Source: Promethearchaeota archaeon (GTDB lineage Archaea > Asgardarchaeota > Lokiarchaeia > Sigyniarchaeales > SOKP01). Taken from it: a stretch of DNA of 64,000 nucleotides. Shown here piece by piece: positions 7,293-60,697 of this stretch. The notes beneath the pieces are model-generated. The model did no database searches, was not told where the DNA came from, and worked only from the letters and a program-made list of their open reading frames with translations. The first letter of the stretch is position 1. Every line of letters begins with the position of its first letter. The stretch is taken from contig JAHPZE010000002.1 in NCBI GenBank assembly GCA_019058365.1, forward strand, positions 64,001 to 128,000, given 5' to 3'. The translations under genes were made by a program, and so were the position numbers.

Positions 7293-9122
7293 ATGGAATT
7301 AAAAATGCCTAAATATACTGGTGGAGAGATTATCTCCAAATATCTGATAAAAGAGGGAGTAAAATATGTTGTCGGGATTCCTGGTCACGGAAATCTTCCT
7401 CTTGTAGACGCTTTCTTCAAAGATAAGGAGAAAATTCAGTTGATTCAACCTAAGCAGGAAATGGCAGGAGTTCATCTCGCTGTAGGATATTATAGAATTA
7501 CAGGACAACCTTTATGCGTTTTTACTTCAATTGGGCCAGGAGCAATTAATACCGCTATTGGTATTGCTGATGCTTTTGTTGATTCATTTCCTTGTCTTAT
7601 AATTACGGGAGATACCCATGTTCATATGAGAGGGAAAGGGGTACTCCAAGAAATTGAAAGAAAAAAAGATTCTAGTATGCCCAAAATTTTAGAACCTATT
7701 GTAAAAAGGAGTTTCGAGGTAGATACTGTAGGACAACTAGCAACGATAATGCAGAGAGCTTTTAATATTATGTTAACCGGAAGAAGAGGACCAGTTCATA
7801 TTGATCTTCCTATGGATGTGCAAGCGAATTCTATTGAGGTGGAGATTCCAGAGCCTCTTGAGAGAAGATCAATCGGTCGGATAAGAGGAGATCCTGAGAT
7901 TATTAAGAAAGCTGTCCACTTAATTAAAAACTCAAAAAGACCTGTTTTATTTATAGGTGGAGGAGCAATTTCCTCAGAAACTAGTGAGGAGATAAGAACA
8001 CTAGCAGAAAAAATAGGTGCAGCAGTGGTCGTTACCATGATGGGGAAAGATATTATTGATAATTCTAATCCACTTTATTGTTGGTCAGCAGGTTCCAAAG
8101 GTACAACAGTGGGATTAAAAATGACGACAAATGCTGACGTTATTCTTGCCGTCGGTTGTAGATTTGCTGATGAAACTGCGAGTTCGTATAAAGATGGAGT
8201 TAGTTTTTCGATACCACCAACAAAACTAATCCAATTAGATATAGATCCTCATGAAATTGGTAAGAATTATCCTGTTTCTGTAGGAATAGTTGGTGACGCT
8301 AAAGCTTGTTTGACCCAAATTTTAGAAGAGTTAGGAGATTATTCAAGAGATTATAAGAATACAGAATATTATAAAGAAATTCAACAAGAGAAACATAAAT
8401 GGTTCAAATTTCTTGATGAGAATCGGGATGATTCAAAAATACCTGTTATGATATCTACAGTTTTAAGAGAAGTAAGAAACTTTTTTGACAGAGATGCTGT
8501 AATAGTAACTAGTTCTGGAAATGTGCAAGCTCAGATGCTTCAAGAATTAGAGTTTTATGAACCTAAAACATGTCTTACCGCTGGAGGATTCTCAACAATG
8601 GGTTATAGTATTCCAGCAGCGATTGGCGCTAAACTGGGTTCAAAAGATATTGGAAAACCTGATAGACAAGTTGTTGCGCTTGTTGGAGATGGAGATTTTA
8701 TGATGACTATATCAGAATTATCTATAGCAGTTCAACTCGGATTGGATAACATCTTCTTTATTATTCTTAATAATCATGGCTGGATTGCAATTAAAGACTT
8801 ACAACAAGCTGCGTTTGGTGAAGATAGGGGTTATGGTACAGCTTTTGAAGATATAGAAGGAAAAACATATTCCCCTGATTTTGCTAAAATCGGTGAAGCA
8901 TTTGGTTGCTATTCTGAAAAAATTTCTAGCAAAAAAGAGATTATTCCTACACTTGAAAGAGCAGCTAAATCAGGAAAACCAGCAGTAATAGAAATTGAAG
9001 TTCAAAGAGAATATCCCTATACAGGATCTCCCGCTGTAGGTTGGTGGGATGTTCCAATACCAGAATATATAAAAGACCGAAGAAAGAAATATGAACAAGA
9101 AAGTAAGGGAGAAAAGCTCTAA
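7293..9122 (+). CDS. Thiamine-diphosphate-dependent enzyme, acetolactate synthase superfamily, IolD-like
   Basis: GIPGHGN, TSIGPGAIN, GDGDFMM...NNHG TPP motif, C-terminal WWDVP. Confidence 0.85.
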   Translation: MELKMPKYTGGEIISKYLIKEGVKYVVGIPGHGNLPLVDAFFKDKEKIQLIQPKQEMAGVHLAVGYYRITGQPLCVFTSIGPGAINTAIGIADAFVDSFPCLIITGDTHVHMRGKGVLQEIERKKDSSMPKILEPIVKRSFEVDTVGQLATIMQRAFNIMLTGRRGPVHIDLPMDVQANSIEVEIPEPLERRSIGRIRGDPEIIKKAVHLIKNSKRPVLFIGGGAISSETSEEIRTLAEKIGAAVVVTMMGKDIIDNSNPLYCWSAGSKGTTVGLKMTTNADVILAVGCRFADETASSYKDGVSFSIPPTKLIQLDIDPHEIGKNYPVSVGIVGDAKACLTQILEELGDYSRDYKNTEYYKEIQQEKHKWFKFLDENRDDSKIPVMISTVLREVRNFFDRDAVIVTSSGNVQAQMLQELEFYEPKTCLTAGGFSTMGYSIPAAIGAKLGSKDIGKPDRQVVALVGDGDFMMTISELSIAVQLGLDNIFFIILNNHGWIAIKDLQQAAFGEDRGYGTAFEDIEGKTYSPDFAKIGEAFGCYSEKISSKKEIIPTLERAAKSGKPAVIEIEVQREYPYTGSPAVGWWDVPIPEYIKDRRKKYEQESKGEKL

Positions 9123-10657
9123 TTCTGATAAATTGCATATTTATCATCTAAAATTTTCTTTAAATTGTTAGGAAGGTTAAATTTTCTAGCATAAAAATCA
9201 AAAATAGTATCATCAATTACTTTCTGCTCTTTATTATAATCATACTTGGAGTTTTTTTCTTTACATTTAATAATTGTATCCACTAATTTTTCTACTTTTT
9301 CTTTAATTTCCTTTTCGGGTTCTATAAAAGGGATGGCATGGATTCCAGTAATTTGGATACTACTAGTATTATTGATAATTCCCTTGGCAAGGTAATTATA
9401 TAACGAGCTATTAAGCAAACCTAACATATAGCCAATTGAAACAAATTTACTTTTAATTATAAATCCAATTGCTTTATTAGAATCCCAATAGCATCCCCTT
9501 GGCATATAACGTGCTGCTAATCTTGAACTTACTCCGCTTATTATTATCCCTTCTTCTTCAAACGGTACATTTTTTGGAATATCATAAATTTTTATAGCTT
9601 CCTCACTCCAATCTAAGGCTTCCATGATTGGTCGATAATACTGGTCGGCGCCACCTCGTTTTAAATAAGGCTTCCATTTAATGTTTTCTAAACCCGATCT
9701 CTTAATAATTTTGAATTTATTTTGCGAATCATTAATCTTCATGTTTCTATTATTAAACAACTCAGCTAGTTCTGTGCCCTCAATAGCAGCAATATATTTT
9801 CTATTATTATGTGTGTGCATTCCTATAAAACCCTTTAAGTATTCTTCTAATTTAGGAGCTTTTTCAAATAATTCAATAACTTTTTCATCAACATCGGTAT
9901 AAAAAATGTTAAATGGTAAAAAATTATACTTGAATTGCTTTATTTGATTAACATTTGGAGGAGATTGGTAGTCTTCCTCATTATCTATTCGAGGAATTAT
10001 CCTCATTAAATTATTATCTCTGTTAACTTTATTTTTCTGACCTGAACATTTTGTTAAAATTATAATTGCAGGGCTAGTACTTACATTTTGATTAGAAAAC
10101 AAATTTTTTGGTGCTAAAAGAATTTCGTTAATTTTACAGGTATTAAGGATAAATCTTCTTAGCTTTTTATGGGTACTTAGAGTCAAGAACGAATCACTGG
10201 TGATAAAACCAAGTTTTCCTCCCTCTTTTAATCTCCAAATACTATTAACAATAAACATTGCATAGGTTTCATGAGCATTTATTTTCCCATATATTTTTTG
10301 TAGTTTTGCTTTGTTTGTACGAATATATTTACTTGTCTTGTTTAAATACGGTGGATTGCCCACAATAAAATCAAATTCATTATATGAGTCAGGATATAAA
10401 GCTAGAAGTGTATCTTGCTCCTTAAAGAAAATACCTAATCTTTTTATTTCAATTTTAAAGTTTGAATTTATATCATAAGCAAATATTTGATTTTTATTAA
10501 TTCCAGATTCTAGTAACTTCTTTATAAAAATACCTGGTCCTGCACACGGGTCCATAATTTTGTGATCTTCTTGAATTCCTCCTAATCTTGACATAATATA
10601 TTCTACAGTATTAGGAGGAGTAATAACTATTCCTAAATCCTTATTATTATACTGGAT
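9119..10657 (-). CDS. N6-adenine DNA methyltransferase (gamma class, TaqI/Eco57I-like), orphan
   Basis: DPCAGPGIF (motif I), VGNPPY (motif IV), TaqI-like C-terminus. Motif X (KDLGIVITPPNTVEYIM) lies upstream of ATG 10594, so the start is proposed at ATC 10657. Confidence 0.85.
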   Translation of the reverse strand: MQYNNKDLGIVITPPNTVEYIMSRLGGIQEDHKIMDPCAGPGIFIKKLLESGINKNQIFAYDINSNFKIEIKRLGIFFKEQDTLLALYPDSYNEFDFIVGNPPYLNKTSKYIRTNKAKLQKIYGKINAHETYAMFIVNSIWRLKEGGKLGFITSDSFLTLSTHKKLRRFILNTCKINEILLAPKNLFSNQNVSTSPAIIILTKCSGQKNKVNRDNNLMRIIPRIDNEEDYQSPPNVNQIKQFKYNFLPFNIFYTDVDEKVIELFEKAPKLEEYLKGFIGMHTHNNRKYIAAIEGTELAELFNNRNMKINDSQNKFKIIKRSGLENIKWKPYLKRGGADQYYRPIMEALDWSEEAIKIYDIPKNVPFEEEGIIISGVSSRLAARYMPRGCYWDSNKAIGFIIKSKFVSIGYMLGLLNSSLYNYLAKGIINNTSSIQITGIHAIPFIEPEKEIKEKVEKLVDTIIKCKEKNSKYDYNKEQKVIDDTIFDFYARKFNLPNNLKKILDDKYAIYQN

Positions 10658-10674
10658 AACTAATCAGCGCTCTA

Positions 10675-11835
10675 TTATTGTTTATTTAAATTAATATCAA
10701 CTTCACTTAATAGGACTGTATAAAATTGGCAGAGTTTCTTCAATATATTTATATCAATTTTATCCAGATCATCGTCTTCAGAATGAACATAATTATAAGT
10801 GCTTTTGTCTCCATTACCAAGTCCCTTGAATTTTTTATTTAATAGAAATAATCCATCACTATATGTACCAATGTAAAACCTGTGTGTTTTCTTCTCTAAA
10901 CTCATTATATCTTTATTTTCTAAAATATAATTAAAAGATTTATAATTTTTATTATTAAGTAGACCATGATCCCATAGATTTACTTTTTTAGCGATAGAGT
11001 CAAAGTTGATTATGAAAGTCTTATCTCTATCAAAATCTTTGATATTATTATAAAAATTTCTTACACCCATAGTCCCAGATTCTTCTGCGCCAGTAAATAC
11101 AAACCACAAATGATAATTATTGAGTATATTTTTTGGATTTGAATAATAATGTAGCAGTTCTAAAACACATGATATTCCAGAAGCATTATCTATAGCTCCT
11201 TTAGATTTATTATTAGTTTTATTTATCCAAAGTATAACAGTAGCTCCAAGATTAATACTTATGATCAAAATTGCAAATATATTTATTAAAAAGAAATCTT
11301 CAGTTAAGAAAAAAGAATTTAAGATGGTAATTAAAAGACCTAGGGAAAAAGTGATAATCCATATATAATACAACTGGATACGAATTTTTATTGAGAATGT
11401 CTGGCCTTTTGAATCTAAATGTGAAAATAGGAAAATATTATAATCTGAGATTTCATTCTTAGCCTGAGATGGTAGTTTCACAAATAAATTCTGAGAATGA
11501 TATTCATGCAGTACTTTAATTGTTTCTGGATTCCGAGTATATAAAATTAGAATCAAAATTAAAATGAATATCAAAAATAGATTAACTATATTGAAAACTA
11601 AATTAAAATTCAAAACTAAAACCACAATAAACCAACTTAGTAATGTTAAAGCAACTTTCGGATAAATTCTTGAATAGAAAATACTAAAAGAAAATTCTTG
11701 AACTATCGGTGAAAGACTTAGATCTTCTATTTTATTTTTACCAATATTGAATGATCTCTTCTCAAAGTCAGTTCCAGATAACCTTGGAAAAGAAAATTCT
11801 TTTAAATTTTTCAATATACGCGTTTCATCAATCAT
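10675..11835 (-). CDS. Membrane-bound M28-family zinc peptidase
   Basis: SHLDSK, GAIDNASG, TGAEESGTMG, NFDSI, VHSEDD plus TM hairpins. Confidence 0.82.
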   Translation of the reverse strand: MIDETRILKNLKEFSFPRLSGTDFEKRSFNIGKNKIEDLSLSPIVQEFSFSIFYSRIYPKVALTLLSWFIVVLVLNFNLVFNIVNLFLIFILILILILYTRNPETIKVLHEYHSQNLFVKLPSQAKNEISDYNIFLFSHLDSKGQTFSIKIRIQLYYIWIITFSLGLLITILNSFFLTEDFFLINIFAILIISINLGATVILWINKTNNKSKGAIDNASGISCVLELLHYYSNPKNILNNYHLWFVFTGAEESGTMGVRNFYNNIKDFDRDKTFIINFDSIAKKVNLWDHGLLNNKNYKSFNYILENKDIMSLEKKTHRFYIGTYSDGLFLLNKKFKGLGNGDKSTYNYVHSEDDDLDKIDINILKKLCQFYTVLLSEVDINLNKQ

Positions 11836-11846
11836 AATTTAAAAAT

Positions 11847-13514
11847 TTATTGTAGATATGCTCCATATTTTGCTGAGCTTACGATTTTTCTATAAATGTT
11901 TAAATAACCAGTTTCAATTTTTACTTCAGGTTTTTCCCATTCGTTTAACCGGTTCTCAATTTCTCCTTGAGGGATTAATAAGTCTAATTTTCGATTATCA
12001 ATATCAATTTCTATCATATCACCGTTATGAACTATTGCAATTGGGCCTCCTTCAATTGCTTCAGGACACACATGCCCTATACAAGGACCTCTCGTAGCTC
12101 CAGAGTATCTTCCATCGGTTATCATTGCTACTGAATCACTTAAACCCATACCTACTAAAATAGCTGCTGGAATTGATAATTCTCTCATTCCTGGAGAACC
12201 TTTAGGGCCTTCATAGCGAATAACTAATACATTACCTTCTTCGATTTTATTTAACAATAAAGCATCTTTCAAATCTTCCTCACATTCAAAGACTTTAGCA
12301 GGACCTTTATGATATCTCATTTTGGGATCAATAGCACTTTGTTTTATTATAGCTCCTTCAGGTGCTAAACTCCCTTTTAATACAGCAATTGCTCCCTCAC
12401 TTGAGATTGGATCGTTTAAGTTCCTTATAATTTGGAAATCGGTAAAATCCACATTTTTAAGATAATCCTTAAGTGTTAATCCTAGAACAGTTTTTGTTGA
12501 TAAATTCAACAACTTTGATAATTTTTTCATTAAAACTTTAACACCACCAGCTTCATGGAACTCAGAGAGATTGTATTCTGATGCTGGTTTGAACTTGGCT
12601 AGAAGCGGAACTGATTTGCTGATTTTATCGAAATCAAAATGGTTTAGATTACCACCTATTTCATGAGATAACGCACATAAATGTAGGACCATATTAGTAG
12701 ATCCACCAAATGATAATGCAACCTTAATTGCATTTTCAATTGAATCATGAGTTATTATATCTAAAACCTTTATTCCTTTTTCAATTAAGTTCATGATCGT
12801 TTTACCTGTGTGTTTGCATAATTCTATTCGTTCCTCACTAACAGCACTCAATGTTGCACAATCTGGTAAAGAAAGACCCATTGTTTCCACGATACAAGCC
12901 ATAGTATTGGCAGTACCCATCATATTACAAGCTCCAGGAGAACAACATGTTTCTGATTCAATGAGAAAAAAATCTTCTTTTGATATTAAACCTGCATTAT
13001 ATTTTCCAATTGCTTCTTTAATATCAGATGTTACATAAGTTTGACCTTTAAGAGATCCATCTTGAAACGTTTTAGGAAGCATAATTCCTCCAGTTAAAAA
13101 GATTGTCGGAATATTACATCTAGCTGCTGCTAAAAGCATCCCTGGTATAATTTTATCACAAGTACATATCATTACCATCCCATCAAAATCATAGGCTTTA
13201 ATAGTACATTCAATCGAAGCTGCAATTATATCTCTCGAAGGTAGAATATATTTTGAAAAATTTCCAGAATTAGCTATTCCATCACATGGAGCAATAGTAT
13301 TAAATTCCATAGGAGTACCACCAGCTTGTTTGACACCTTCTTTAACAAATCCAGCTAATTTACGTAAGTGTATATGTCCCGGATTAATTTCATTCCATGA
13401 ATTTACTATTGCAACTTTTGGTTTTTGTAACTCTTCGTAAGAATAACCACATCCGCGATATAGAGCACGTTCATATGCTTTTTTTGGATCTAATTCTTTT
13501 ATATTTGATAACAT
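11847..13514 (-). CDS. ilvD: Dihydroxy-acid dehydratase (IlvD/Edd family)
   Basis: [58 protein letters not shown]. Confidence 0.9.
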
Positions 13515-13596
13515 TGAGATTTATAAAAATATTTAATTAATGAAATTTCCCATAATAAATCAATTTCTCAAGAAATGATTAAATAATCATGTGTAT

Positions 13597-14499
13597 TTAA
13601 TCATTAATAATAGGATTTTTATCCATGCAAGGAACTCCAAATTGACAAAATGCGCATCCAACTGGATATGTAGGAGGCCTTAATTTCCTATTCACACAAC
13701 GAATGTGGGGTTTTAATATTGGCCCTATTTTTGCTATTATTTTTCTTGCTACTTTTTGCCCATATTCATAACATTTTATTTTATCGTGGCCATTTTCATC
13801 GATAGCATTAGCTGGACATCTCTCTTCACATTCTCTACAAATCCCTTTTGCATAATATAAGCAATTTCCATAAGGGTTATCACTCTTTCTTGTAGTAATT
13901 TTGAGTGGAGCATCAGTAACAACAGAAGCTAGTCTAATATTACAACCAACATCAGTAATTAGCCCCTCATGCAAACTAAATGTTCCTAAGCCCGTTGCAA
14001 AAGCTATATGGCGTTCTGACCATGTTGAGTAAAAATTTTTCTTTAAAATTATAGAAAAGGATTTACTCAACATCCCAGCTATAGCCTTATAACCGTTACC
14101 TTCAAAAAATCCGATAATCTGTCTACATGTTTCTTGTTTAAAAGAATTAGCATAATTTCTTCCTACAGAATAAATTTCAGCTGGAACTATCACTCTTGAT
14201 AACTTTTTTATATTTTTACTTTCATTGCGGATTTTATCAACAAATGGAAATACGATTGATAAAATTCGGAGTTTAGAAGCTTCTATCGTTTCTTGATCCT
14301 CTGCTAACCATAACTCAAGAGGAGTTAAATGTTCAGGTCCAACGACTTCTTTAAATTTTTGAAAAATTGGATCGTCTCCTTGGGCAACTCCAACTTTTGG
14401 ATTAGAAAAAATTCTGCCTCCACCATAATTTTCTTGGAGGCGATTAAGCTTACTTGTTTCAAAAAATGACTCAAGATACGAATATATTTCATTAATCAA
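13597..14499 (-). CDS. QueG/reductive-dehalogenase-like Fe-S (probably cobalamin) oxidoreductase
   Basis: WSERHIAFATGLGTF, GCNIRLASVVTD, C...CRECEERCP, C...GCAFCQFGVPC. Confidence 0.75.
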   Translation of the reverse strand: MINEIYSYLESFFETSKLNRLQENYGGGRIFSNPKVGVAQGDDPIFQKFKEVVGPEHLTPLELWLAEDQETIEASKLRILSIVFPFVDKIRNESKNIKKLSRVIVPAEIYSVGRNYANSFKQETCRQIIGFFEGNGYKAIAGMLSKSFSIILKKNFYSTWSERHIAFATGLGTFSLHEGLITDVGCNIRLASVVTDAPLKITTRKSDNPYGNCLYYAKGICRECEERCPANAIDENGHDKIKCYEYGQKVARKIIAKIGPILKPHIRCVNRKLRPPTYPVGCAFCQFGVPCMDKNPIIND

Positions 14500-49589: not shown

Positions 49590-50120
49590 TTATTTTAATC
49601 TTACCTCTGAGAGATGAAGATGATCTGTTTCTACTTCTACAAAAGCTTTAAATATTTGCTTTACTCGAGTATTTTTTGCTTCAGCTGCCGCTTGGCTATA
49701 GAATTTTATAGCTCTATCTTCTCTTGAATGAGATTCTTCCAGATTTGGTTTATATTTCGCTGCACATTTATCATATTTAGGAAATTCAACTTTATCTAGC
49801 TTGAGTATTTTTTTCCAAACTGATGCGTGTTCCCCCTCAACCTTAGCAAGAATTTTAAAAATTTTTTGACCATCTAATTCTGGAGTCTTATTGCTCGCAC
49901 ATTTATAAAAGATATTATTCGATATTTCGACTTCTAAAGCCTTTTCTACATTAGTCTTATCTTTTTCATTTAATTCAACATCCCAAGCACCTGCATCATC
50001 ATATTGTGTTGATTCTACAAAATATTTTTTAAATGCGCCACAAAAAGGGCATCGACTAGGTGCTTCTTCTCCAATATACGCTTCTCCACATATCTTACAT
50101 ACAAATACTTTAACAAAAAT
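49590..50120 (-). CDS. Rubredoxin-like plus ferritin-like di-iron protein (reverse-rubrerythrin-like), missed by the ORF track
   Basis: CKICG...CPFCGA; ALEVE..N..FY, EGEH, E.RA..FY, ETDH; 176 codons open; proposed ATT start at 50120. Confidence 0.85.
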   Translation of the reverse strand: MFVKVFVCKICGEAYIGEEAPSRCPFCGAFKKYFVESTQYDDAGAWDVELNEKDKTNVEKALEVEISNNIFYKCASNKTPELDGQKIFKILAKVEGEHASVWKKILKLDKVEFPKYDKCAAKYKPNLEESHSREDRAIKFYSQAAAEAKNTRVKQIFKAFVEVETDHLHLSEVRLK

Positions 50121-50211
50121 TTTTTTTCACTACTTTTATAATTAATTTTTTTCCTATTATTTAACAAAAATTTTTTTTCACTACTTTTATAATTAATTTT
50201 TTTCCTATTAT
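50110..50211. repeat. Perfect 51-bp tandem duplication
   Basis: 50110-50160 is identical to 50161-50211. Confidence 0.9.
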
Positions 50212-50391
50212 TTTCTTACAACTTAGTATAAGAGTTCAAATTTAGATTAAATTATTAAAATTTTCACAGTTTTTATAGTTTTAAGTTAATTTCTAAAAAC
50301 ATTATGCGTTAAATGCAATTATTAAAAAAAAATAGAATATAAAAAGAATTATAGAATCTTTTAAAATGCATTAATTTATTTAATCTTTGAA

Positions 50392-51486
50392 ATGATTTAT
50401 CGAGTTCTAGGCATAGATCCTGGTAGTCTATCATGGGATTTCTTCGGTTTGGAGGATAATAAAACAATTCTTGACACATCTTTACCCACTAAAGAACTAA
50501 TTGCTAATCCTCAGAAAGCTATTACTATAATTAATTCTGTAAAAAATATTGATCTAATGGTTGCTCCAAGTGGGTTTGGGCTTCCTTTAAAAGATGTACA
50601 AGAGTTAACAGAGCAAGATATTTTTTTTACGTTATTGAAATTTGATCAGAAAGAAAAAAACAAATTAATCGGTCTTGGTGAGGTTTTAAGACTTATAAAA
50701 GCTCAAAAGATACCTGGCATCATTGTACCTGGAGTTAAACATTTACCTACTGTTCCAAAGTATCGAAAAATTAATAAAATTGATATGGGTACGGCAGATA
50801 AAATTTGCACAGCTGTTACTGGAATTAAAGACCAAATGGAAAGATTTGAAGTTGGTCCAGAAAATACAAATTTTATTATGGTTGAGATAGGTTATGGGTT
50901 TACAGCAGTTTTAGCAATTGAAAATGGTCAAATTATTGATGGAATTGGAGGAAGTAATATAATGGGTTTTAGAGCTTGTGGCAGTCTTGATGGAGAATTA
51001 GCCTATCTAATTAAAAATATTCATAAAAAAAATATATATAAAGGTGGAGTAGCCTATATTTCAGGCTATTCCGATTTGAGTTTGAAAGAAATTACACTTT
51101 TAGCCGAGAAGGATGAACAAACTAAGATTGCTCTAAAAGCTTATTTATCAAGCGTGAAAAAAGCTGTTTTTGGAATATCTTCGTCTTTTTCATCCAAAGA
51201 AAAAATTAAAGAAGTAATGTTGGCGGGGAGAGGATCAAATTTAGCATATATTCGAGAGAAAATGATTCGTGGTTTAAATGATGTTGCCCCTGTAAGAATA
51301 ATGAATTCATATAGTCAAATAGCAAAACGTGCTGCTCAAGGCGCAGCCTTTATTGCCAATGGAATATTAGGTGGTAGATTCGAACCAATTATTAATAATT
51401 TAAAAATTAAAGAAGCTAATGGTTCTATTTTAGATGATATTTTTATTCCATTCGAAAAAGAAAAACTGATAAGTGATTTAGATTAG
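50392..51486 (+). CDS. DUF1464 family ASKHA-fold (butyrate-kinase-like) protein
   Basis: GIDPGS.SWD, PSGFGLP, PGVKHLPTVP.YRK.NKIDMGTADK, AAQGAAFIANG. Confidence 0.85.
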   Translation: MIYRVLGIDPGSLSWDFFGLEDNKTILDTSLPTKELIANPQKAITIINSVKNIDLMVAPSGFGLPLKDVQELTEQDIFFTLLKFDQKEKNKLIGLGEVLRLIKAQKIPGIIVPGVKHLPTVPKYRKINKIDMGTADKICTAVTGIKDQMERFEVGPENTNFIMVEIGYGFTAVLAIENGQIIDGIGGSNIMGFRACGSLDGELAYLIKNIHKKNIYKGGVAYISGYSDLSLKEITLLAEKDEQTKIALKAYLSSVKKAVFGISSSFSSKEKIKEVMLAGRGSNLAYIREKMIRGLNDVAPVRIMNSYSQIAKRAAQGAAFIANGILGGRFEPIINNLKIKEANGSILDDIFIPFEKEKLISDLD

Positions 51487-53053
51487 AATTCTTATAATTA
51501 CTGGCCTGCTAAGTTATGATATAATAGAGAAGATAGTCAAACACGTAAAAGAGCATGAGATAAATATTATAAAAGCACCAATATCTATTTCTGCATTTCT
51601 TACAGAATCTATAATAACTGATATTTTAGAACAAATAGAAATTTCTAATTATGATTTGATATTATTGCCTGGTTTTGTCCAGTGGGATTCTACTAATTTA
51701 GAAGAAAAATTTTCAATAAATATTAGAAAAGGACCTGAATTTGCTTCTGATTTACCTGTAACCTTAAAAAATTTAAAAAATTTCATATTATCTAATACAA
51801 TACCGGCAAATAGATTATTAGAGATTTCAGGTGAAAATAAATATTCAGAAATTGTAAAGGAACAATTAGAATTGGCTAAAAACGATCTAGGTTCTCATAC
51901 ATATTACCTTAATGAAAAAAAGACTAATATCATAATTGGAAGGTATATGCCACCTCCTATAATTGCTGAGATTGTCAATTGTACTGAAAAAAGTAATGAG
52001 CAGATTCTTAAAAAAGCAAAACATTATATAAATTCTGGAGCGGATATTATAGATATTGGATGCGTATCTAATAAACCGAACCCCGAAAGAATCAAAGAGA
52101 TAATCAAATTAATTAGGTCCAAACATGATGTTTTGATAAGTATCGATTCAATGGTCCCAGAAGAAATAAATGCTGCTGCAGATGAAAACATTGATCTCAT
52201 TTTAAGTTTAGATCTCGGCAATTATGAAGAAATGTTAAATCTCCCTAAAAACATTCCTATTGTTATACTTCCCACAAATGTTAAGGATGCTTATTTTCCT
52301 AAAGATCCCGAGACTCGAATTAAAAATTTATTTAAATTAACAAAGAGATTATTAAACAATGGATTCAAGAAATTAATAGCTGATCCCTTATTAGAAACAC
52401 CTATAAGTCCAGGAATTTGCAACTCTTTGGAAGCTTATTTTCTATATAAAAAGAAAGTTATTGAAAATAAATACGAACCTTTTGAATTACCGATGTTTTT
52501 TGGAATTTCAAACGTAGTAGAACTCATGGATATTGATTCTATCGGAATTAATGGACTTTTAGCTAGTATTGCAGTTGAATTAGATATAGGAATTCTTTTT
52601 ACTGTTGAACATAGTGCAAAATTAATGGGAGGGGTAAGAGAATTAAAAGAATGTGTAAAATTAAATTATATTGCCAAGCATAATAAAACTCCCCCAATAA
52701 ACCAAGGAATCTCAATATTAAAGGCTAAAGGAAAAACAAGTCAAGAATTACCTCCTATAAATCAAGCTAATGTGATTTTAGCAGATAAAACCATACAAGA
52801 TTATATTCCCGATACTAATGGGTATTTTAGAATTTATACAGATAACTATTCTAAAAAAATCTTTGTTCATTTCTATTCTTATGATGACAAATTGCTTCAA
52901 ACTTTTATAGGGGAAAATGCTGAAGCTTTAAGTAAAAAGATAATTCAAAATGACTTAACTAAAAATATATATCATTTAAATTATTTAGGTAGAGAATTGA
53001 AAAAAGCAGAAATTTGCTTATTTTTTGGAAAACCTTATATCCAAGATGAATAA
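51482..53053 (+). CDS. Dihydropteroate synthase-related protein (MJ0107-like, with N-terminal and DUF4346-like C-terminal domains)
   Basis: In-frame upstream extension RILIITGLLS...YDLILLPG; GADIIDIG, ISIDS, ADPLL, NVVELMDIDSIG, HLNYLGRELKKAE, KPYIQD; proposed ATT start at 51482 (ORF track start 51656). Confidence 0.88.
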   Translation: MRILIITGLLSYDIIEKIVKHVKEHEINIIKAPISISAFLTESIITDILEQIEISNYDLILLPGFVQWDSTNLEEKFSINIRKGPEFASDLPVTLKNLKNFILSNTIPANRLLEISGENKYSEIVKEQLELAKNDLGSHTYYLNEKKTNIIIGRYMPPPIIAEIVNCTEKSNEQILKKAKHYINSGADIIDIGCVSNKPNPERIKEIIKLIRSKHDVLISIDSMVPEEINAAADENIDLILSLDLGNYEEMLNLPKNIPIVILPTNVKDAYFPKDPETRIKNLFKLTKRLLNNGFKKLIADPLLETPISPGICNSLEAYFLYKKKVIENKYEPFELPMFFGISNVVELMDIDSIGINGLLASIAVELDIGILFTVEHSAKLMGGVRELKECVKLNYIAKHNKTPPINQGISILKAKGKTSQELPPINQANVILADKTIQDYIPDTNGYFRIYTDNYSKKIFVHFYSYDDKLLQTFIGENAEALSKKIIQNDLTKNIYHLNYLGRELKKAEICLFFGKPYIQDE

Positions 53054-53067: not shown

Positions 53068-53364
53068 TTAAATAATTTCATGACATATTTTTATATCGAT
53101 TCCAGGTTCTAAAAGAGGACTCAATTTTACCATGTTCTTACCTAAATTTTTATTATGTTGTTTCAATGCATCAGAATCAGCATATACTTCATAAAAAATA
53201 ATTGAATTTTCCTCTCCCTTTATTGTGTGAGGAATATATTGCAAACATCCTGGTTCTGATTCTTTTATTTTAGGTACAACTTCTTTTAGGACTTCAATTG
53301 CTTTTTCCATATTTCCTTTTTTCACTCGAGCTGCTGCAATTAATGTTATTGGGATTACAACCAC
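53068..53364 (-). CDS. Antibiotic biosynthesis monooxygenase (ABM/YgiN-like) protein
   Basis: EPGCLQY, FYEVYAD.DALKQH; true start is GTG 53364 or ATC 53355 rather than 53448. Confidence 0.8.
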   Translation of the reverse strand: MVVIPITLIAAARVKKGNMEKAIEVLKEVVPKIKESEPGCLQYIPHTIKGEENSIIFYEVYADSDALKQHNKNLGKNMVKLSPLLEPGIDIKICHEII

Positions 53365-53687
53365 CAATTCTTTCTTTATATTTTTAGTATTAATTTTAAT
53401 TTTTAATAAAATTATTAATAAAATTGTTAATTCCATAAAAAATTGCATTAGCTAAATAATATTGGTTATTTAGACAATTTTATTTCTATAATACATTCTA
53501 CTCAAATAGTACAAATAAAACCTTTTACAATATTACAATAATTAAAATCAGTTTATTTTAAAATTTAGGTACTCAGATGAGTTAATATTATAAATTTTAT
53601 GGTGAATTTATGAGTAGAAATTTAAATAATTACTAAACTTATATAGCATACACTTATGAACTAAATAACCTCAAACAGTTTGATATT

Positions 53688-55553
53688 ATGATCCCAAAAA
53701 ATATGGAATCCTTTCTTAATGAACATCTCCCTAAAGCTACTTTTAAAGCTCGGCTTAAAAAAGATCAAGGAAAATGTTATTTAGAATTTAGTAATCTAGA
53801 TGTCCATCTTTTATCCCATTTAGGGATTATATGCGATAAAGTAGGTCCTCACTTAGTAGGATGTATATGGGATGAAAATTCACCACTTGAAATCGGTGGA
53901 TATGTAGTTGTGGATTCCCTCGCGGGAGGTCGCCCTTCAATGGGAGGAATTAGGATGTTACCAAGTATAACTCCATCTGATATCCATAATCTAGCACGAG
54001 GAATGACGTTAAAAAATGCTGCTGCTAATCTTCCTTATGGGGGTGGAAAAGCAGGAATTGTAGCAGAAAGGGGACTCTCTCCCGAAGAACATACTAAAAT
54101 TGTCAGTGGTTTTGCTCGATTAATTCGACGGTATAAAGAAATCTACCTTCCAGGGCCTGATGTTGGCACGAATGATGCTGATATGAAGACTATTGCCATT
54201 GAAAATGGGTTAGATAAAGCTCTCTCTAAGCCTGCTGATATGGGTGGGAACCGTATTGATGAACTTGGAGCTGCTGCGGGAGGCGTTATAATTGCATTAC
54301 AAACTCTGTTAAAAATTATGCCAAGATTAAGAATACTTACTCAATTCGCTAATTTGGAAATTCCTAATACAAAAGATCTTAAAATATTGATTCAAGGTTT
54401 TGGAGCAGTAGGAGCTCATGCTGCCCGTATATTGAAAGATCGATTACCTGAAGCAAAAGTTATAGGTATTAGTGATTTAGAGGGATATTTATATAATGAA
54501 TCTGGATTACCTATTGGAGAATTATTTAAATTATGGAAAAAAAATAAATTAGTTACTAATCTATATTTTAAAAATCAAATACTCTCAGAAGGATATAAAC
54601 ATCCAACTAAATTTTCTACAAATGCAGATAATTTACTCCTAGAAAATGCATTTTGTTTGATTCCAGCTGCTCCTATTTTTAATTATTTATGTGTCAGAAG
54701 ATCTGAAAATCCTTCGATGACTGTTGATCGAATGGGAAAATGGTCAGTGATTATTGAAGGTGCTAATACTTACTCTCCTGATCCAAATAGAAAGGCTGCC
54801 CGAATTCGGATGGAACAAATTGTATATCGAGAAAAAGGAGTTATGATCGCAAATGATTATTTAGTTAATTCGGGTGGAGTAATATTTGCAGCTCAAGAGC
54901 ATATTGTAAAAACCCCAGATCACCTACAAATTCCAGAAGAAATGTTAGGTAATCGTGAATTAGTACAAAAATGGTTAAAAGATCATGCAAATGAATTTGC
55001 TAAATTATCAAAACAACGTTTAATAGCAGGTGAAGAATACAGAGAAAAAGTAATTCATAATAACATGATTGAATTAGTTGATATGCTAACTAAATATCCA
55101 GATATGTTACCCTGCACTGCTGCTGAACAAATAAGCCTTCAGCGTCTTACAGCGAAAGAAAGACAACGTACAGCTAAGGACATTATGATACCAATACCAA
55201 CTATCGACGTTAAAAGCACAATTCAAGAAGCTGCATCATTAATTATTAAAGAAGTGAGTGATATCATAGCTGTTCTTTCGAGTGGTAAACTTGTAGGTGT
55301 TGTAACTGATTGGGATGTTACAAAAGCTATGGCGGAGGGAAGTATAGATGTTACTCTTGACAAAATAATGACTAGAGATGTTATTACCACTCATCCAAAT
55401 TTTACAATTGTAGATATAGTGCGTGAATTGGAACAATCTAAAATCTCAGCAATGCCGGTTGTGGAAGAAGGTATTGTATTAGGAAAAGTTAACTCAGATC
55501 TCATTGCCCAACGCTACGTATTAGATTTACTACAGTCTCGAGAACCGCATTAA
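53688..55553 (+). CDS. Glu/Leu/Phe/Val dehydrogenase fused to a C-terminal CBS pair
   Basis: GGIRM, GMTLKNA..LPYGGGKAGI, PGPDVGT, QGFGAVG, EGAN, NSGGVI; TAKDIM...GVVTDWD...IMTRDV..MPVV. Confidence 0.88.
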   Translation: MIPKNMESFLNEHLPKATFKARLKKDQGKCYLEFSNLDVHLLSHLGIICDKVGPHLVGCIWDENSPLEIGGYVVVDSLAGGRPSMGGIRMLPSITPSDIHNLARGMTLKNAAANLPYGGGKAGIVAERGLSPEEHTKIVSGFARLIRRYKEIYLPGPDVGTNDADMKTIAIENGLDKALSKPADMGGNRIDELGAAAGGVIIALQTLLKIMPRLRILTQFANLEIPNTKDLKILIQGFGAVGAHAARILKDRLPEAKVIGISDLEGYLYNESGLPIGELFKLWKKNKLVTNLYFKNQILSEGYKHPTKFSTNADNLLLENAFCLIPAAPIFNYLCVRRSENPSMTVDRMGKWSVIIEGANTYSPDPNRKAARIRMEQIVYREKGVMIANDYLVNSGGVIFAAQEHIVKTPDHLQIPEEMLGNRELVQKWLKDHANEFAKLSKQRLIAGEEYREKVIHNNMIELVDMLTKYPDMLPCTAAEQISLQRLTAKERQRTAKDIMIPIPTIDVKSTIQEAASLIIKEVSDIIAVLSSGKLVGVVTDWDVTKAMAEGSIDVTLDKIMTRDVITTHPNFTIVDIVRELEQSKISAMPVVEEGIVLGKVNSDLIAQRYVLDLLQSREPH

Positions 55554-55590
55554 TAATTAAAATTTTAAAATATAATTTATTAAGAAGATC

Positions 55591-56721
55591 TTAATAAAAT
55601 TTTATAATATTATATAAAGTATCTCTTTGTGCTGGTCTTTTTCCTGCGTTATTTATTATTTTCACTATTTCTTCTGGAGACAAATACTCGCCAAATTCAG
55701 CACCAGCACTTTTTGAAATATTCTCTTCCATTAATGTTCCAGAGAAGTCATTAACCCCGTAATTTAAAGAAACTTGCGCAAAATTTGGACCCAATTTTAC
55801 CCAACTACATTGGATATTATCAATGTAATTATTAAAGAATAATCTTGCTACACAAAATAGTTTTAAATCATCCATTCCATAGTTAGGTTTTAAAGGAAAA
55901 TTTTCAAGTTGAGATAAAATCGGATTTTCTTTTACGAACGGTAATGGTACAAATTCAGTGAACCCATGAGTTTCCCTTTGTATTTCTCTTAATATTTCTA
56001 AATGCTTAACTCTATCACTTAAACTTTCAATATGGCCATACATTATGGTAGAAGTTGTTGGAATCTTTAACTTGTGAGCAGTAGTTATAATTTCTTTCCA
56101 TTGAGATGTATTCACCTTATTTGGACAAATCACTTTTCTTATTTCATCAACTAATATCTCTGCAGCTGTTCCTGGAATAGAGTCTAGTCCTGCTTTTTTT
56201 AATTCTCTAAGCGTATCTAATATCGAATTTTCAAATAATTTGGCTATATAGAATATTTCCTGTGGAGAAAATGCATGTATATGCATCCTTGGATCGATTT
56301 TTTTAACAGTTTTAAGAATATCCAAATAAAATTCAAACTTTACCTTAGGATTTATGCCACCTTGAATACAAACTTCCGTACATCCCGTATTTTTAGCTTC
56401 GATTACTTTTTCTCTAATCTGATCAATATCAAGTAAGAATGCATTAGGATCTGTTGCTGGTAAACTAAAAGAACAGAACTTACAGCGTTGATAACAAATA
56501 TTTGTGAAATTTATATTTCTATTTATAACAAAAGTTACAAGATTTTGCTTTTTTCCGAAGCAGATCTGATCTGCTACGTATTGTAAAGCAAAGAATTCTT
56601 TTCCCTTTACTTTTAAAATCTCTAAGGCTTCTTCTGAACTTATTTCATCCGAATCTAAAGCTTTCTGTAGAATTTTCTTTATATTTGGACTGATATTTTC
56701 AGACAACTGAGTATTTATCAT
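55591..56721 (-). CDS. cofH: FO synthase subunit 2
   Basis: NRNINFTNICYQRCKFCSF, IPGTAAEIL, IQCSWVKLG, GTLMEENISKSAGA. Confidence 0.92.
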   Translation of the reverse strand: MINTQLSENISPNIKKILQKALDSDEISSEEALEILKVKGKEFFALQYVADQICFGKKQNLVTFVINRNINFTNICYQRCKFCSFSLPATDPNAFLLDIDQIREKVIEAKNTGCTEVCIQGGINPKVKFEFYLDILKTVKKIDPRMHIHAFSPQEIFYIAKLFENSILDTLRELKKAGLDSIPGTAAEILVDEIRKVICPNKVNTSQWKEIITTAHKLKIPTTSTIMYGHIESLSDRVKHLEILREIQRETHGFTEFVPLPFVKENPILSQLENFPLKPNYGMDDLKLFCVARLFFNNYIDNIQCSWVKLGPNFAQVSLNYGVNDFSGTLMEENISKSAGAEFGEYLSPEEIVKIINNAGKRPAQRDTLYNIIKFY

Positions 56722-57823
56722 CTAAATTTATATTATCAATTACTTTTTTAATATTTTCTGGACAAAAACTTTCTTTCTTTATAAATTTACTATAGATGGG
56801 GAGTCTCTCTTTGAGATTATAACCTTTTTCTTTACAAATTTTATATAAATCCTCTATTTGAGGCCACTGATTTTCAGGATTTATAAAATCTAATGTAAAA
56901 GGGGAAATTCCACCAAAATCATCAATACCCATATCGATAAACTCTCTTTCAAAACCTGGTATAAGATTTGGTGGAACTTGAATAGCAATATCGTTTTCAA
57001 AAATAATTCGAGCAAATCCTACTATTTTAAGCATATCTTCAAGAGTAATTGACTTTCTAGGCTGGTAAGGGATATTTTGTTTATTTATAAAATTTTGAAT
57101 TATTACTTCTTGTATATGACCATATTTATCATTGATCTCCTTTATTAAATATAAATCTCCAATGATATCTTCAATACTTTCTCCAATACCTAATAATAAA
57201 CCTGTAGTAAAGGGAATTTTTAATTTTCCTGCATTATTTATGTGCTCTATTCTTTTTTTTGGCATTTTTCCAAGAGAATGCTCATGTACTTCGCCCTTTT
57301 CAAAGAGTTTCATGCTTGTACTTTCAAGCATTAATCCCATACTTGCATTATATTTTTTTAAATTCTTTATTTCATCATATGTCAAATATCCTAAATTTGT
57401 ATGTGGTAGAATGTTAAAATCTAACAGATAAGTGCTAACATCTTTTACAAACTCAATAAAATCTGAACATTTTCTTTTTTCTAATTCTTTTTTAACTTCA
57501 AGAAATCTTCCAGGACGTTCTCCAGACATTATAAGGGCTTCTTTACATTCATTTTGAAACGCTTTCTGAATTAAATTTACTATGTGTTCATTACTAAGCA
57601 AAATAACATTGCTCTCACTATTTAATTTCGGAATTTTATAATTATAAAAGCAATACCCACACTGATTTATACAATAGTTTGAAAGAGAAAGTGTAAAATT
57701 TTTAGAATATGTAATTACATTACGATCTTCCTCAGGTAATTGATCTTTTATATCTTTAACCTTAATACTCAATTTCTTAATAGTTAAGCTTATTAATTGC
57801 TTGATTTTCTTTTCATTCATCAC
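56699..57823 (-). CDS. cofG: FO synthase subunit 1
   Basis: ITYSKN, CINQCGYC, LPHTNLG, SMGLMLE, PFTTGLLLGIGE, GHIQEVIIQNF, QVPPNL. Confidence 0.92.
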   Translation of the reverse strand: MMNEKKIKQLISLTIKKLSIKVKDIKDQLPEEDRNVITYSKNFTLSLSNYCINQCGYCFYNYKIPKLNSESNVILLSNEHIVNLIQKAFQNECKEALIMSGERPGRFLEVKKELEKRKCSDFIEFVKDVSTYLLDFNILPHTNLGYLTYDEIKNLKKYNASMGLMLESTSMKLFEKGEVHEHSLGKMPKKRIEHINNAGKLKIPFTTGLLLGIGESIEDIIGDLYLIKEINDKYGHIQEVIIQNFINKQNIPYQPRKSITLEDMLKIVGFARIIFENDIAIQVPPNLIPGFEREFIDMGIDDFGGISPFTLDFINPENQWPQIEDLYKICKEKGYNLKERLPIYSKFIKKESFCPENIKKVIDNINLDDKYSVV

Positions 57824-58488
57824 TTTCTCTTTTTATAACTTAAAGTAATATAATAAGTTCTGATTTTAACATCAAATAAATCAAATCTAGGTGCACTTTT
57901 TATCTCTTCAAATCCTATTCCTTCTACCAAGCTTGTTGCTTCCTTTCCACCAACAATCCAGGGTGCTATAGTTAACCTTATATCATCAATTAAATTATTT
58001 TGTATAAAACTCCAATTTAAATTACCACCACCTTCCAATAAGATAGTATTTATTCCCAAACTTTTTAGGATCGGTAAAAGCTTTATTAAATCCACACGTT
58101 TACCATCTCCCGCTCTAATTATTTTTACTCCTCTTGCTTCATAATCTCTTTGTTTGGTAAATGGAACATTTTCAGTAGTGCAAATTATTGTAGGATAAAT
58201 TTCTGGTCGAAAGGAAATTACATTCGATTCTAGTGGTATCGTCAAATTGCTATCTAAAACAATTCTATAATATCCTTTATGATTATAATATTTAATATGC
58301 AATTTTGGATTATCTTTTAAAATTGTATCCTTTCCCACCATTATTGCATCAACTTGAGTTCGAAGTTTATGGACCTCTTTCCAGTCAACTTTATCCGATA
58401 ATTCTGAATCACCCTCTTTAGTTGCGATTTTACCATCTATAGTCATTGCAGCGCTTAAAATAATATAGGGATTGTTAACTTTTTTCAA
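57820..58488 (-). CDS. arfC: 2,5-diamino-6-ribosylamino-4(3H)-pyrimidinone 5'-phosphate reductase (Rib7/ArfC)
   Basis: AAMTIDGKIAT, VHKLR..VDAIMVG, DNPKL, LEGGG; stand-alone reductase with no deaminase domain. Confidence 0.88.
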   Translation of the reverse strand: MKKVNNPYIILSAAMTIDGKIATKEGDSELSDKVDWKEVHKLRTQVDAIMVGKDTILKDNPKLHIKYYNHKGYYRIVLDSNLTIPLESNVISFRPEIYPTIICTTENVPFTKQRDYEARGVKIIRAGDGKRVDLIKLLPILKSLGINTILLEGGGNLNWSFIQNNLIDDIRLTIAPWIVGGKEATSLVEGIGFEEIKSAPRFDLFDVKIRTYYITLSYKKRK

Positions 58489-59644
58489 ATACTAATCCTC
58501 CTTTAATAAATGTCTTTTTTATATTTTCTGATTTTGTTCTTTGAGTAATTAGATCATATATATTATTAGAATCTAAAATTGAAGAAAAGAGATTTGGAGA
58601 GCTAAGATCAATTAAAAAAAGATCAGCAAATTTTCCTTTTGAAATTGAACCAAACTCTTTTTCGAGATCAAAATTTTTTGCAGCATTAATTGTAACCATC
58701 TTCAATAAATCTTTAGAGGAAAATTGAAGCTCTTTATTATAATTGCATAAAACCCTCGAAATTCGATAAAGATATCGTATCTCTTCAAATAAATCTGTAT
58801 TATTTACCATTAAATTATCTGTTCCTAAGGATATTGGAACTTTTAAGCTTAAAATTTCATTGATGGGAGGAAATCCGGTTCCAAAATATCCATTACAACG
58901 AGGACATAAAACAAGAGATTTATGATATCTGTTTATTTTTTCTAAATCATTTTTGATAAATTTTGTTCCATGAATGATGATATCAACAAAATTATCACTA
59001 AACATTTCATTTATTAAATTTTCACTACGAATCTTTTCCGCACAATGGCAAGCAATAATTTTTTTAAATTTATGTTTAGCAGATACAACAAATTTTTTAT
59101 TTGATGAACTAATTTGTTTATAACTAGATAATCCAACTCCATCTGCCATATTAAATATAGCTTCTATTTCGCTTTCATCCATAAATCGTCCTAAAACTAA
59201 AAAATTAATTGGACTGTCAGTAAGTGCCTTTTTTAAAAGCTTTACTCCTTTAACCCCTTCCTCTCGAAAATCAATGAAAAATGTAATACCATTTGAAAGC
59301 ATTTCTAAAACAGCATTTTGAATTCCATTAATCTTAATGTCTTTTGGAGTTTGTCTTAATAATTTATGTTTAAGGCCAAATGGTGGGGCAACGATTTCCC
59401 CTAGTTCTTTATTAAAACCCAATTCTTTTGCAAAATTATCTCCAATATGGATATGTGAGTTTATAAAACCTGGAATCATTAAGAATGTCTGATGATTGGG
59501 AAGAATTTCGATATTTGCACTTATATTATCACAAGAAATATGGATAATTCTTCCATTTTCGTCTATTTCTAAATTTACATTCTGCTTTAAATCTAAATTC
59601 TCTCCAATTAAAGCATATTTGCTATATAAGAATTTTTTAGCCAT
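58475..59644 (-). CDS. Amidohydrolase-superfamily metal-dependent deaminase
   Basis: PGFINSHIHIGD, HCAE, HGT, CPRCN, LGTDN, TINAA, GKFADL; start uncertain (59644/59668/59704). Confidence 0.85.
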   Translation of the reverse strand: MAKKFLYSKYALIGENLDLKQNVNLEIDENGRIIHISCDNISANIEILPNHQTFLMIPGFINSHIHIGDNFAKELGFNKELGEIVAPPFGLKHKLLRQTPKDIKINGIQNAVLEMLSNGITFFIDFREEGVKGVKLLKKALTDSPINFLVLGRFMDESEIEAIFNMADGVGLSSYKQISSSNKKFVVSAKHKFKKIIACHCAEKIRSENLINEMFSDNFVDIIIHGTKFIKNDLEKINRYHKSLVLCPRCNGYFGTGFPPINEILSLKVPISLGTDNLMVNNTDLFEEIRYLYRISRVLCNYNKELQFSSKDLLKMVTINAAKNFDLEKEFGSISKGKFADLFLIDLSSPNLFSSILDSNNIYDLITQRTKSENIKKTFIKGGLVFEKS

Positions 59645-59737
59645 TAATTCATAAACAATGTAAATCATTTTAAATATTTCTAATCCTTTTAAAGAATAGA
59701 ACATTAAAAAATTAATTTTTGATACTGGTGGCTATAA

Positions 59738-60697
59738 ATTACTAAATTTAAAACAGATCTACAAGATTCTGGTTCAATAATAGATATTCCAATTGACAAG
59801 GTTGGTATTGTAGAATTGCAAAAAAAAGTTGAGATTGTTCAAGAAAATAAAAAGTACTCTTTCTATCCTAAAATTTCAGCGTTAATCAATCTTCCAGCTG
59901 AGCAGCGTGGAATTCATATGTCCCGAACTTCGGAAACTATAGAAGAAGTCATTAATGAAGTAATTTTCAAGCCCACCCCAACTATTGAACTTGTTGGAGA
60001 TAGAATTATAAAGAAATTAATGGAACAACACCCTTATACTTCTAAAGCTGAAGTAAAACTAGAAGGCAAAATTGTTGTTCAAGTAAAAGAAAATGATGAA
60101 AGACTTATTCAAAAATCATATGACATTAGTTCATTTGTAAAAGCAAGTCGAGATATTTCGGAAAATCTTGATTTTAATTATTTCATAGGTGCTAGTGCAG
60201 TTGGTATGACGGTCTGTCCTTGTGCTAAGGAGCTTTCTTTGGAATATGCAGAAGAAGTTGTTAAATCTAGAAAAGATATAAATGTTTCCGAAGAAGATCT
60301 TAATAAGCTGTTAAATCTACTTCCTTTCTCCTCACATAACCAAAGATCCATTGGGACAATAATTATCCAAATAAAAGATTTAACTAATCATAAGGTGGAT
60401 GTTTTAGATATAATTGATGTAATAGAAGAATCTATGAGCGGTAAAATTCAATCTGTTTTAAAAAGACCAGAAGAAGCTGAATTAGTAAGAAGTGCACACT
60501 TAAAACCTCTATTTTCAGAAGATGTTATAAGAGAAATGGCAAAAAATTTCATTTTAAGAGATTTTCCCAACCTTGAAGATGATTTTAAAGTAAAATTTAA
60601 AGTAGAAAGTCTAGAATCTATACATCCCCATAACGTCTTTGCTTCACTGAAAACGACCGTAGGAGAGTTAAAAGAAAGGCTGAAATATATCCATTAA
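59738..60697 (+). CDS. mptA: GTP cyclohydrolase MptA (FolE2 family)
   Basis: RGIHMSR, GMTVCPCA, SHNQR, LKRPEE, EDVIR, ESIHPHN; conserved N-terminal DLQ...IDKVGI lies upstream of 59816, so ATT start proposed at 59738. Confidence 0.9.
   Translation: MTKFKTDLQDSGSIIDIPIDKVGIVELQKKVEIVQENKKYSFYPKISALINLPAEQRGIHMSRTSETIEEVINEVIFKPTPTIELVGDRIIKKLMEQHPYTSKAEVKLEGKIVVQVKENDERLIQKSYDISSFVKASRDISENLDFNYFIGASAVGMTVCPCAKELSLEYAEEVVKSRKDINVSEEDLNKLLNLLPFSSHNQRSIGTIIIQIKDLTNHKVDVLDIIDVIEESMSGKIQSVLKRPEEAELVRSAHLKPLFSEDVIREMAKNFILRDFPNLEDDFKVKFKVESLESIHPHNVFASLKTTVGELKERLKYIH

Follow-up and report, generated by a model that had tools for sequence, protein, structure and literature searches.

Probable translation initiation at ATT, ATA and ATC codons in a Lokiarchaeia-type genus, including the gene for the initiation factor aIF1

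NCBI translation table 11 counts ATT, ATC and ATA among its start codons. Two non-canonical starts are confirmed in E. coli, those of infC and pcnB (10.1101/063800), and the AUU of infC is the means by which the encoded factor, IF3, controls its own translation (Butler et al. 1987, as cited in PMC4705826). Non-canonical starts are also described for Deinococcus deserti (dnaA, ATC; rpsL, CTG; infC, ATA; Deide_03051, CTG; PMC2830850), eukaryotic eIF1 regulates its own synthesis by means of a poor initiation context (Ivanov et al. 2010, as cited in PMC6237735 and PMC4705826), and the aIF1 of S. solfataricus discriminates against AUU mRNA in vitro (PMC4705826, a review). For the Asgard tubulin AtubA of Kariarchaeaceae a 'rare ATT start codon' is reported, the deposited protein having lacked its first beta-strand, which an upstream ATT at a plausible distance from a ribosome-binding site restores (PMC13394414). 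The literature searched contained no systematic description of ATH starts (ATT, ATA or ATC) for Asgard archaea, and none for aIF1. The present analysis concerns four genes that appear to begin at ATT or ATC in a stretch of 64,000 nucleotides from a Promethearchaeota archaeon (G000:C34:64001-128000; contig JAHPZE010000002.1), referred to as the window, whose numbering is used below unless a contig is named. The genome (G000; 4.74 Mb, 29.5% GC) is a metagenome-assembled genome of 54 contigs with an estimated contamination of 6.6%, and the start regions of its genes were read alongside those of 30 relatives, 18 of them from the same genus (protein identity 64-99%).

In all four genes, which encode a DHPS-like protein, MptA, a rubrerythrin-like protein and a DNA methyltransferase, frame inspection and Pfam place the family-conserved N-terminus 5' of any in-frame canonical start (ATG, GTG or TTG), with an in-frame stop 0-2 codons ahead of the ATT or ATC and a Shine-Dalgarno (SD)-like motif 5-6 nucleotides (nt) upstream. 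The original prediction had singled out these genes on the same grounds, and its coordinates and arithmetic are correct; its assertion that the conserved N-termini lie upstream of the canonical starts is borne out by Pfam matches that begin at residues 3-7, so that the family domains start a few residues from the ATH codon in every case. No other start is possible for these four genes. The interpretation favored here, with a probability of roughly 0.87, is that ATH codons act as genuine translation initiation codons in this Lokiarchaeia-type genus, read by the normal initiator tRNA and led by the SD.

The DHPS-like gene (DUF6513 pterin-binding protein; 51482..53053, + strand, 523 codons, by Pfam and orthologues) has the start context AGTGA-tttag-ATT, with a TAG directly ahead of ATT 51482 and an SD-like AGTGAT (51472..51477, + strand) that complements the 16S 3' end and lies 5 nt, counted from GTGA, before the ATT. 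Its first canonical start, TTG 51656, is 58 codons downstream, and position 3 of the DUF6513 profile already matches residue 3. The ATT is present in 17 of 17 genus orthologues, and a relative from another family carries ATG at the same codon (MQVLILTG). The mptA gene (GTP cyclohydrolase, FolE2-type; 59738..60697, + strand, 319 codons, by Pfam and orthologues) reads GGTGG-ctataa-ATT, with the SD at 59727..59731 (+ strand) and 6 nt before ATT 59738, a TAA directly ahead of the ATT, and its first canonical start, TTG 59816, 26 codons downstream; position 3 of the GCHY-1 profile matches residue 7. The 18 genus genomes read, G000 included, have ATT (17) or ATA (1) at this codon, and CTGGTG(A/G) is constant 6 nt upstream in all genus orthologues, with free variation in the spacer and the second codon. 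Codon 6 is ATG in some species only, and in another genus an ATG stands no more than one codon from the ATT position.

The rubrerythrin-like gene, with an N-terminal rubredoxin-type zinc ribbon (49593..50120, - strand, 175 codons plus stop, by Pfam and orthologues), lies in a frame of 178 codons from stop to stop that contains no ATG, GTG or TTG at all. The context at ATT 50120 is TAG TGA AAA AAA ATT, in which the SD-like AGTGA (50127..50131, - strand; GGTGA in relatives) lies 6 nt before the ATT and includes the in-frame TGA stop, and position 1 of the RUBY_RBDX profile matches residue 6. Among 18 genus loci (G000 included) the start position is ATT in 12, ATA in 1 and ATG in 2, and one codon earlier ATT is found in 2 more and ATG in another 2. 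The gamma-class N6-adenine DNA methyltransferase gene (Eco57I/TaqI_C type; 9119..10657, - strand, by Pfam and orthologues) reads TGA TTA GTT ATC at 10657, the in-frame TGA forming part of an SD-like GCTGA (10664..10668, - strand) 6 nt before the ATC, where relatives mostly have GAGTGCTGA. The first ATG comes 21 codons later, at 10594, and position 21 of the N6_Mtase profile matches residue 6. The aligned start codon is ATC at 12, ATT at 2 and ATA at 2 of the 17 loci read (G000 included); the 17th has a one-base offset with an in-frame ATT two codons earlier, and at one of the ATC-type loci a TTG precedes the ATC in frame by two codons. A scan of all open reading frames (ORFs) in the window brought up no ATH-start case beyond those already flagged.

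Two local features accompany these starts. The ATT of the DHPS-like gene shares bases with the TAG stop of the DUF1464 gene upstream (ATTAG, 51482-51486), an arrangement that resembles an ATGA overlap and suggests translational coupling onto a non-canonical start. At the rubrerythrin-like gene, a perfect 51-bp tandem duplication (50109-50213, 2.1 copies, 100% match) spans a promoter-like TATA, the AGTGA SD, the ATT and the first four codons, and its upstream copy creates a mini-ORF of four codons (ATT TTT GTT AAA TAA) behind an identical SD.

If translation instead began at the first downstream ATG, GTG or TTG, the conserved upstream part would be untranslated and the proteins N-terminally shortened. 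Canonical codons are available downstream in three of the four genes, and public calls of the Prodigal type do start there, as in the DHPS-like proteins of 465 residues. However, proteins begun downstream would lack DUF6513, the N-terminal DLQ of GCHY-1, the zinc ribbon and motif X of the methyltransferase and, elsewhere in the genome, the Ras P-loop, Fer4 clusters and the N-terminus of uL16; the frames of the rubrerythrin-like gene and of aIF1 offer no usable canonical start; and the upstream parts are conserved as protein, with synonymous change, across 17 genomes. Initiation at the downstream codons is therefore very unlikely. Gene callers of the Prodigal type permit only ATG, GTG and TTG, so that genes with ATH starts are truncated or missed. 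The DHPS-like family has at least five different N-termini in public databases, including 'MRILIITG' (523 residues, NCBI records, ATT read as Met), 'M/L-ILLPGFVQWDS' (465 residues, 58 short, in JGI, ENA and Logan records), 'MVKPIKEHK' (505-509 residues) and 'MIWIR...' (526-527 residues). The NCBI pipeline thus accepts some ATH starts gene by gene, and the systematic truncation by annotation that had been predicted is visible in DHPS-like proteins called at 465 residues beside others at 523. Asgard protein sets are distorted in this way for structure prediction, for expression (compare AtubA, PMC13394414) and for the phylogenomics of eukaryotic signature proteins, the affected genes including those for Ras-like GTPases and Roadblock proteins.

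Across the genus, ATT, ATA or ATC is kept at exactly the proposed start codons in 17-18 genomes, and ATG occupies those codons in more distant orthologues or in some species of the genus, which is what start-codon turnover predicts. The position is homologous to canonical starts in uL16, the rubrerythrin-like and DHPS-like genes, aIF1 and the ABM gene described below, and lies within one codon of one in mptA; the stops that precede the ATH codons interchange among orthologues (TAG, TAA, TGA). These observations bear on the idea that the ATH codons are sequencing or assembly errors at ATG codons, or that the genes are decaying pseudogenes in a metagenome-assembled genome. The fragmentation of the assembly and its estimated contamination lend that idea some plausibility, but 17-18 independently assembled genomes share these ATH codons, with intact frames and conserved SDs, which excludes read errors and pseudogenes, and random errors are not expected to produce the spacer-dependent enrichment reported below; the likelihood of such an artefact is close to nil.

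The N-termini could also be supplied by recoding, either through read-through of the preceding stop (with selenocysteine or pyrrolysine) or through a frameshift from an upstream ORF. In-frame TGA codons of the selenocysteine type do exist in HdrA-like genes of this genome, and the GTG ATT TAG ATT of the DHPS-like gene can be read as a GTG start followed by a decoded TAG, some species having TGG there and being annotated as 'MIWIR...'. Pyrrolysine decoding or other read-through of that TAG is nevertheless ruled out, as one genus orthologue has TAA in its place, and upstream of mptA and of the rubrerythrin-like gene lies promoter-type intergenic DNA that contains several stops but no ORF on the same strand. 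The DUF1464 and M28 peptidase genes upstream are complete by Pfam, which likewise rules out a fusion or frameshift with either of them, so the ATH-start frames are not the tails of broken fusions. Recoding as a general explanation is highly improbable.

The frequency of initiation at ATH codons was assessed genome-wide in G000, where the 3' end of the 16S rRNA (...GGATCACCTCCT) confirms the anti-SD. SD sites were defined as every 5-base match to AGGAGGTGAT(C), and the triplet 5-7 nt downstream was recorded if an in-frame stop lay within 6 codons upstream, no canonical start separated this stop from the triplet, the open frame extended over at least 100 codons, and the 10 codons after the triplet were free of ATG, GTG and TTG. 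Long ORFs followed ATT at 27 of 844 sites, ATA at 17 of 552 and ATC at 7 of 370, as well as CTG at 3 of 155 and ACG at 2 of 89, compared with 16 of 4039 sites for five control triplets consisting only of A and T and 44 of 13645 for the other triplets (the 64 less stops, canonical starts, ATH, CTG, ACG, AAG and AGG). ATH codons therefore open long frames 9 times more often than the other triplets (51/1766 versus 44/13645; Fisher p=8e-24); under identical filters ATG yields 83 cases, TTG 18 and GTG 5. The excess is present at SD spacers of 5-7 nt, weak at 8-10 and absent at 1-3 and 12-14, as it is for ATG, and after background subtraction 5-base rather than 4-base SDs are commoner at ATH than at ATG starts (odds ratio 5.7, p=6e-9). 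Both results agree with the SD-driven selection of starts that had been proposed from the window. The proportions of ATT, ATA and ATC (27:17:7) track the general abundance of these codons, as would follow from a third base that goes unread.

Independent indications came from a dicodon coding-potential scan against an intergenic background, which identified 88 ORFs of at least 120 codons that are clearly coding upstream of their first canonical start, most of them with SD-N6-ATH directly after a stop; an earlier model that took the other reading frames as background failed to separate 5' leaders from coding sequence and was replaced. A further 30 candidates whose first canonical start lies at least 20 codons downstream of the proposed codon were compared with Pfam, and in 19 the domain begins upstream of that canonical start, usually 2-12 residues from the proposed codon. 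Supported in this way are an ETF-alpha Fer4 protein and a zf-AN1 protein (both CTG), two Ras-family GTPases, a response regulator, ThiF, Roadblock, MGMT, DUF134, an L7Ae-family protein, an NTP_transferase ('IKGVILAGG...'), Usp and the ribosomal protein uL16 (ATC). The start codon of uL16 varies within the genus (ATC in 6 genomes, ATG in 9, GTG in 1 and TTG in 2), and outside it the same codon is ATG at 10 of 11 loci and GTG at the other.

The signal is weak in a sample from another family. In 800 kb of a genome with 31% GC whose aIF1 starts at TTG (G026), ATH codons opened long frames at 3 of 268 sites versus 6 of 2335 with 5-base SDs (p=0.057) and at 12 of 2176 versus 42 of 17021 with 4-base SDs (p=0.016), and the ratio of ATH to ATG was 0.18-0.24, versus 0.37-0.61 in G000. 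In a genome of another family with 54% GC (G027), long chance ORFs swamp the same test with a background of 3.7%.

The single SUI1/aIF1 gene of G000 (G000:C35:130394-130687, - strand, by Pfam and orthologues) is itself among the genes that appear to start at ATT. The locus reads TAA AGG TTG TGA TAA GAC AGC ATT AAA GAC GAC GAG ATT TGT CCT..., and its frame contains no ATG or GTG and a sole TTG near the C-terminus, leaving no canonical start before the zinc knuckle. The ATT is found at 17 of 17 readable genus loci (G000 included) and is, like the leader, nearly invariant; the homologous codon, which is followed by CCN AAR, is ATA in one neighboring genus, TTG in two further genera and ATG in three that are more distant. 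The spacing of 9 nt between SD and ATT is sub-optimal. The connection with aIF1, which had been suggested as a bearing on the evolution of its fidelity, is consequently stronger than had been guessed. The aIF1 leader, AAGGTTGTGATAAGAG (G000:C35:130688-130720, - strand, L133), was almost invariant in the 17 genus loci read and contains an in-frame TTG followed by TGA TAA, a start-stop that overlaps the SD and lies 9 nt before the ATT.

A pattern search located an initiator tRNA gene of the usual kind, with a CAU anticodon, A1:U72 and an anticodon stem that contains three G-C pairs; the pattern used brought up no further initiator-like gene. The gene (G000:C35:107633-107745, + strand) carries a 31-nt intron at 37/38. 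ARAGORN recovered 30 tRNAs when introns were allowed and 11 when they were not, with no tRNA for Met or Ile among them, so the catalogue is incomplete, and an Rfam tRNA search of the genome gave 25 matches; the ARAGORN misses suggest that many tRNA genes are intron-containing or split. This incompleteness leaves some room for a different mode of AUH initiation (AUH being AUU, AUA or AUC in the mRNA), by a dedicated initiator-like tRNA with an AUH-reading anticodon or by a modified C34, in which case the first residue could be Ile. The high apparent efficiency, on a ribosomal protein gene among others, is hard to square with the 1-3% known from E. coli (10.1101/063800) and would also be accommodated by such a decoder. 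Against it stand the presence of the standard CAU initiator tRNA as sole find of the pattern search and the free interchange of ATT, ATA and ATC in proportion to their general frequencies, which is more in keeping with an unread third base than with a specific decoder. A special decoder is thus unlikely.

Under initiation at ATH by the normal initiator tRNA, the SD (the core of AGGAGGTGAT) would pair with the 3' end of the 16S rRNA and set the P site of the 30S subunit about 6 nt downstream, where the CAU anticodon would pair with the A and U of AUU, AUA or AUC and the mismatch at the third base would be tolerated, so that the protein begins with Met. The proofreading of start codons by aIF1 would then be permissive or tunable in this lineage, and aIF1 would probably limit its own synthesis through its AUU and the SD spaced at 9 nt, as IF3 does through the AUU of infC; genes with AUH starts would respond together to the level of aIF1. 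A more far-reaching and tentative proposal, argued by analogy and not our leading expectation, is that the stringency of start-codon selection is a regulated variable, with an 'AUH regulon' of a few percent of the genes that may track the level or activity of aIF1, itself held in check by its invariant AUU. Such a regulon would include ribosomal proteins, small GTPases and enzymes of cofactor biosynthesis, and the conserved aIF1 leader with its TTG-TGA start-stop might belong to the self-control.

Several points weigh against the interpretation of ATH codons as genuine and efficient starts. In E. coli, AUU, AUA and AUC initiate at about 1-3% of the level of AUG (10.1101/063800), and their use by a ribosomal protein gene therefore implies either a much higher efficiency here or very strong compensation. 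The SD-like GCTGA of the methyltransferase gene is weak, and the autoregulation of aIF1, while probable, is drawn by analogy with infC. The number of ATH-start genes in G000, roughly 150-300 (3-7%), is extrapolated from filtered counts: the excess above background amounts to about 45 genes for SDs of 5 bases and about 63 for SDs of 4 bases, and was corrected for stop proximity (about 0.45, estimated from composition), for the absence of a canonical start in 10 codons (0.70) and for an ORF length of at least 100 codons (about 0.85, an estimate). At 8-10%, the rate in the window lies above the extrapolated genome-wide rate. The original prediction of relaxed, SD-driven start-codon selection, made from about 4 of 50 genes, is supported in that an SD-dependent class of ATH starts exists genome-wide; relaxed fidelity as the cause of ATH usage is something we infer.

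The gene for an ABM-domain monooxygenase-like protein (53068..53355, - strand, by orthologue alignment), which had been put forward as a possible fifth case, adds to these reservations. The context GGTGG-ttgta-ATC is present at 53355 as noted, with the SD (53361..53365, - strand) 5 nt before the ATC, but an in-frame GTG (53364) and TTG (53367) lie 3-4 codons upstream and an ATG at 53448, so that the ATC is not strictly required. The ATC aligns with the ATG start of four distant orthologues and the GGTGG is homologous to their SD, and two of the four have a stop codon between SD and ATG; a start at ATC 53355 is thus probable, and the gene is retained as a fifth case with the qualification that canonical starts are available upstream. 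The longest ORF, from ATG 53448, adds 31 low-complexity residues (MQFFMELTILLIILLKIKINTKNIKKE...) that resemble a translated AT-rich leader (53361-53448, - strand), and a gene caller that favors the longest ORF would over-extend the gene.

Other unusual starts and frames were observed elsewhere in the genome. A gene for a URO-D-family methyltransferase-like protein (L116, G000:C48:19378, - strand) and one for a V-type ATPase C/AC39 subunit (L120, G000:C26:23515, + strand) have an apparent ACG start, 6-7 nt behind GGAGGT or GGTGA. A Hel308-like DEAD helicase (L093, G000:C54:10403, - strand) and a TPR protein (L099, G000:C23:9755, + strand) are coding far upstream of their first canonical start; both begin after GTGATTTAAG-GTA, and their SD is not accompanied by an ATH, CTG or ACG codon. 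Three HdrA-like frames (G000:C21:109255, - strand; C9:28503, + strand; C16:344843, + strand) run on past an in-frame TGA in the context Cys-x-TGA-Gly (...C-H/Q/R-TGA-G-V/L-N-I...), and these TGA codons look like selenocysteine codons.

Non-canonical initiation as such is known; what is new here is its frequency, its conservation and its presence on ribosomal protein genes and on the homologue of eIF1. Near-cognate initiation at a frequency far higher than in E. coli with its two confirmed cases, and on essential genes as well as the eIF1 homologue, bears on the evolution of start-codon stringency from archaea to eukaryotes, and the proposed feedback loop of aIF1 is directly testable. As in infC and pcnB of E. 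coli, near-cognate AUU or AUA codons stand behind an SD and the gene of a fidelity factor itself uses such a codon; unlike E. coli with its two cases, dozens to hundreds of genes would be involved here, ribosomal protein genes included, and unlike IF3 the fidelity factor is aIF1, an unrelated protein homologous to eIF1, for which autocontrol is proposed by analogy. Deinococcus deserti is comparable in that non-canonical starts are conserved on core genes in a clade and were found through heterogeneous annotated N-termini, but there four genes of a bacterium have proteomic proof, whereas here a genome-wide class is known from sequence and the machinery is archaeal. The AtubA case is a remark on a single gene in a methods section, with nothing on frequency, conservation or aIF1. 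Eukaryotic eIF1 offers a parallel in the factor itself, since the homologous protein lies behind a weak initiation signal and its synthesis would be sensitive to its own abundance; in eukaryotes this signal is an AUG in a poor Kozak context reached by scanning, while for aIF1 it consists of an AUU that an SD precedes at a spacing of 9 nt, and the regulation is inferred. If the tentative proposal of an AUH regulon were true, it would be the archaeal counterpart of the bacterial infC and eukaryotic eIF1 controls, in the prokaryotic lineage closest to eukaryotes.

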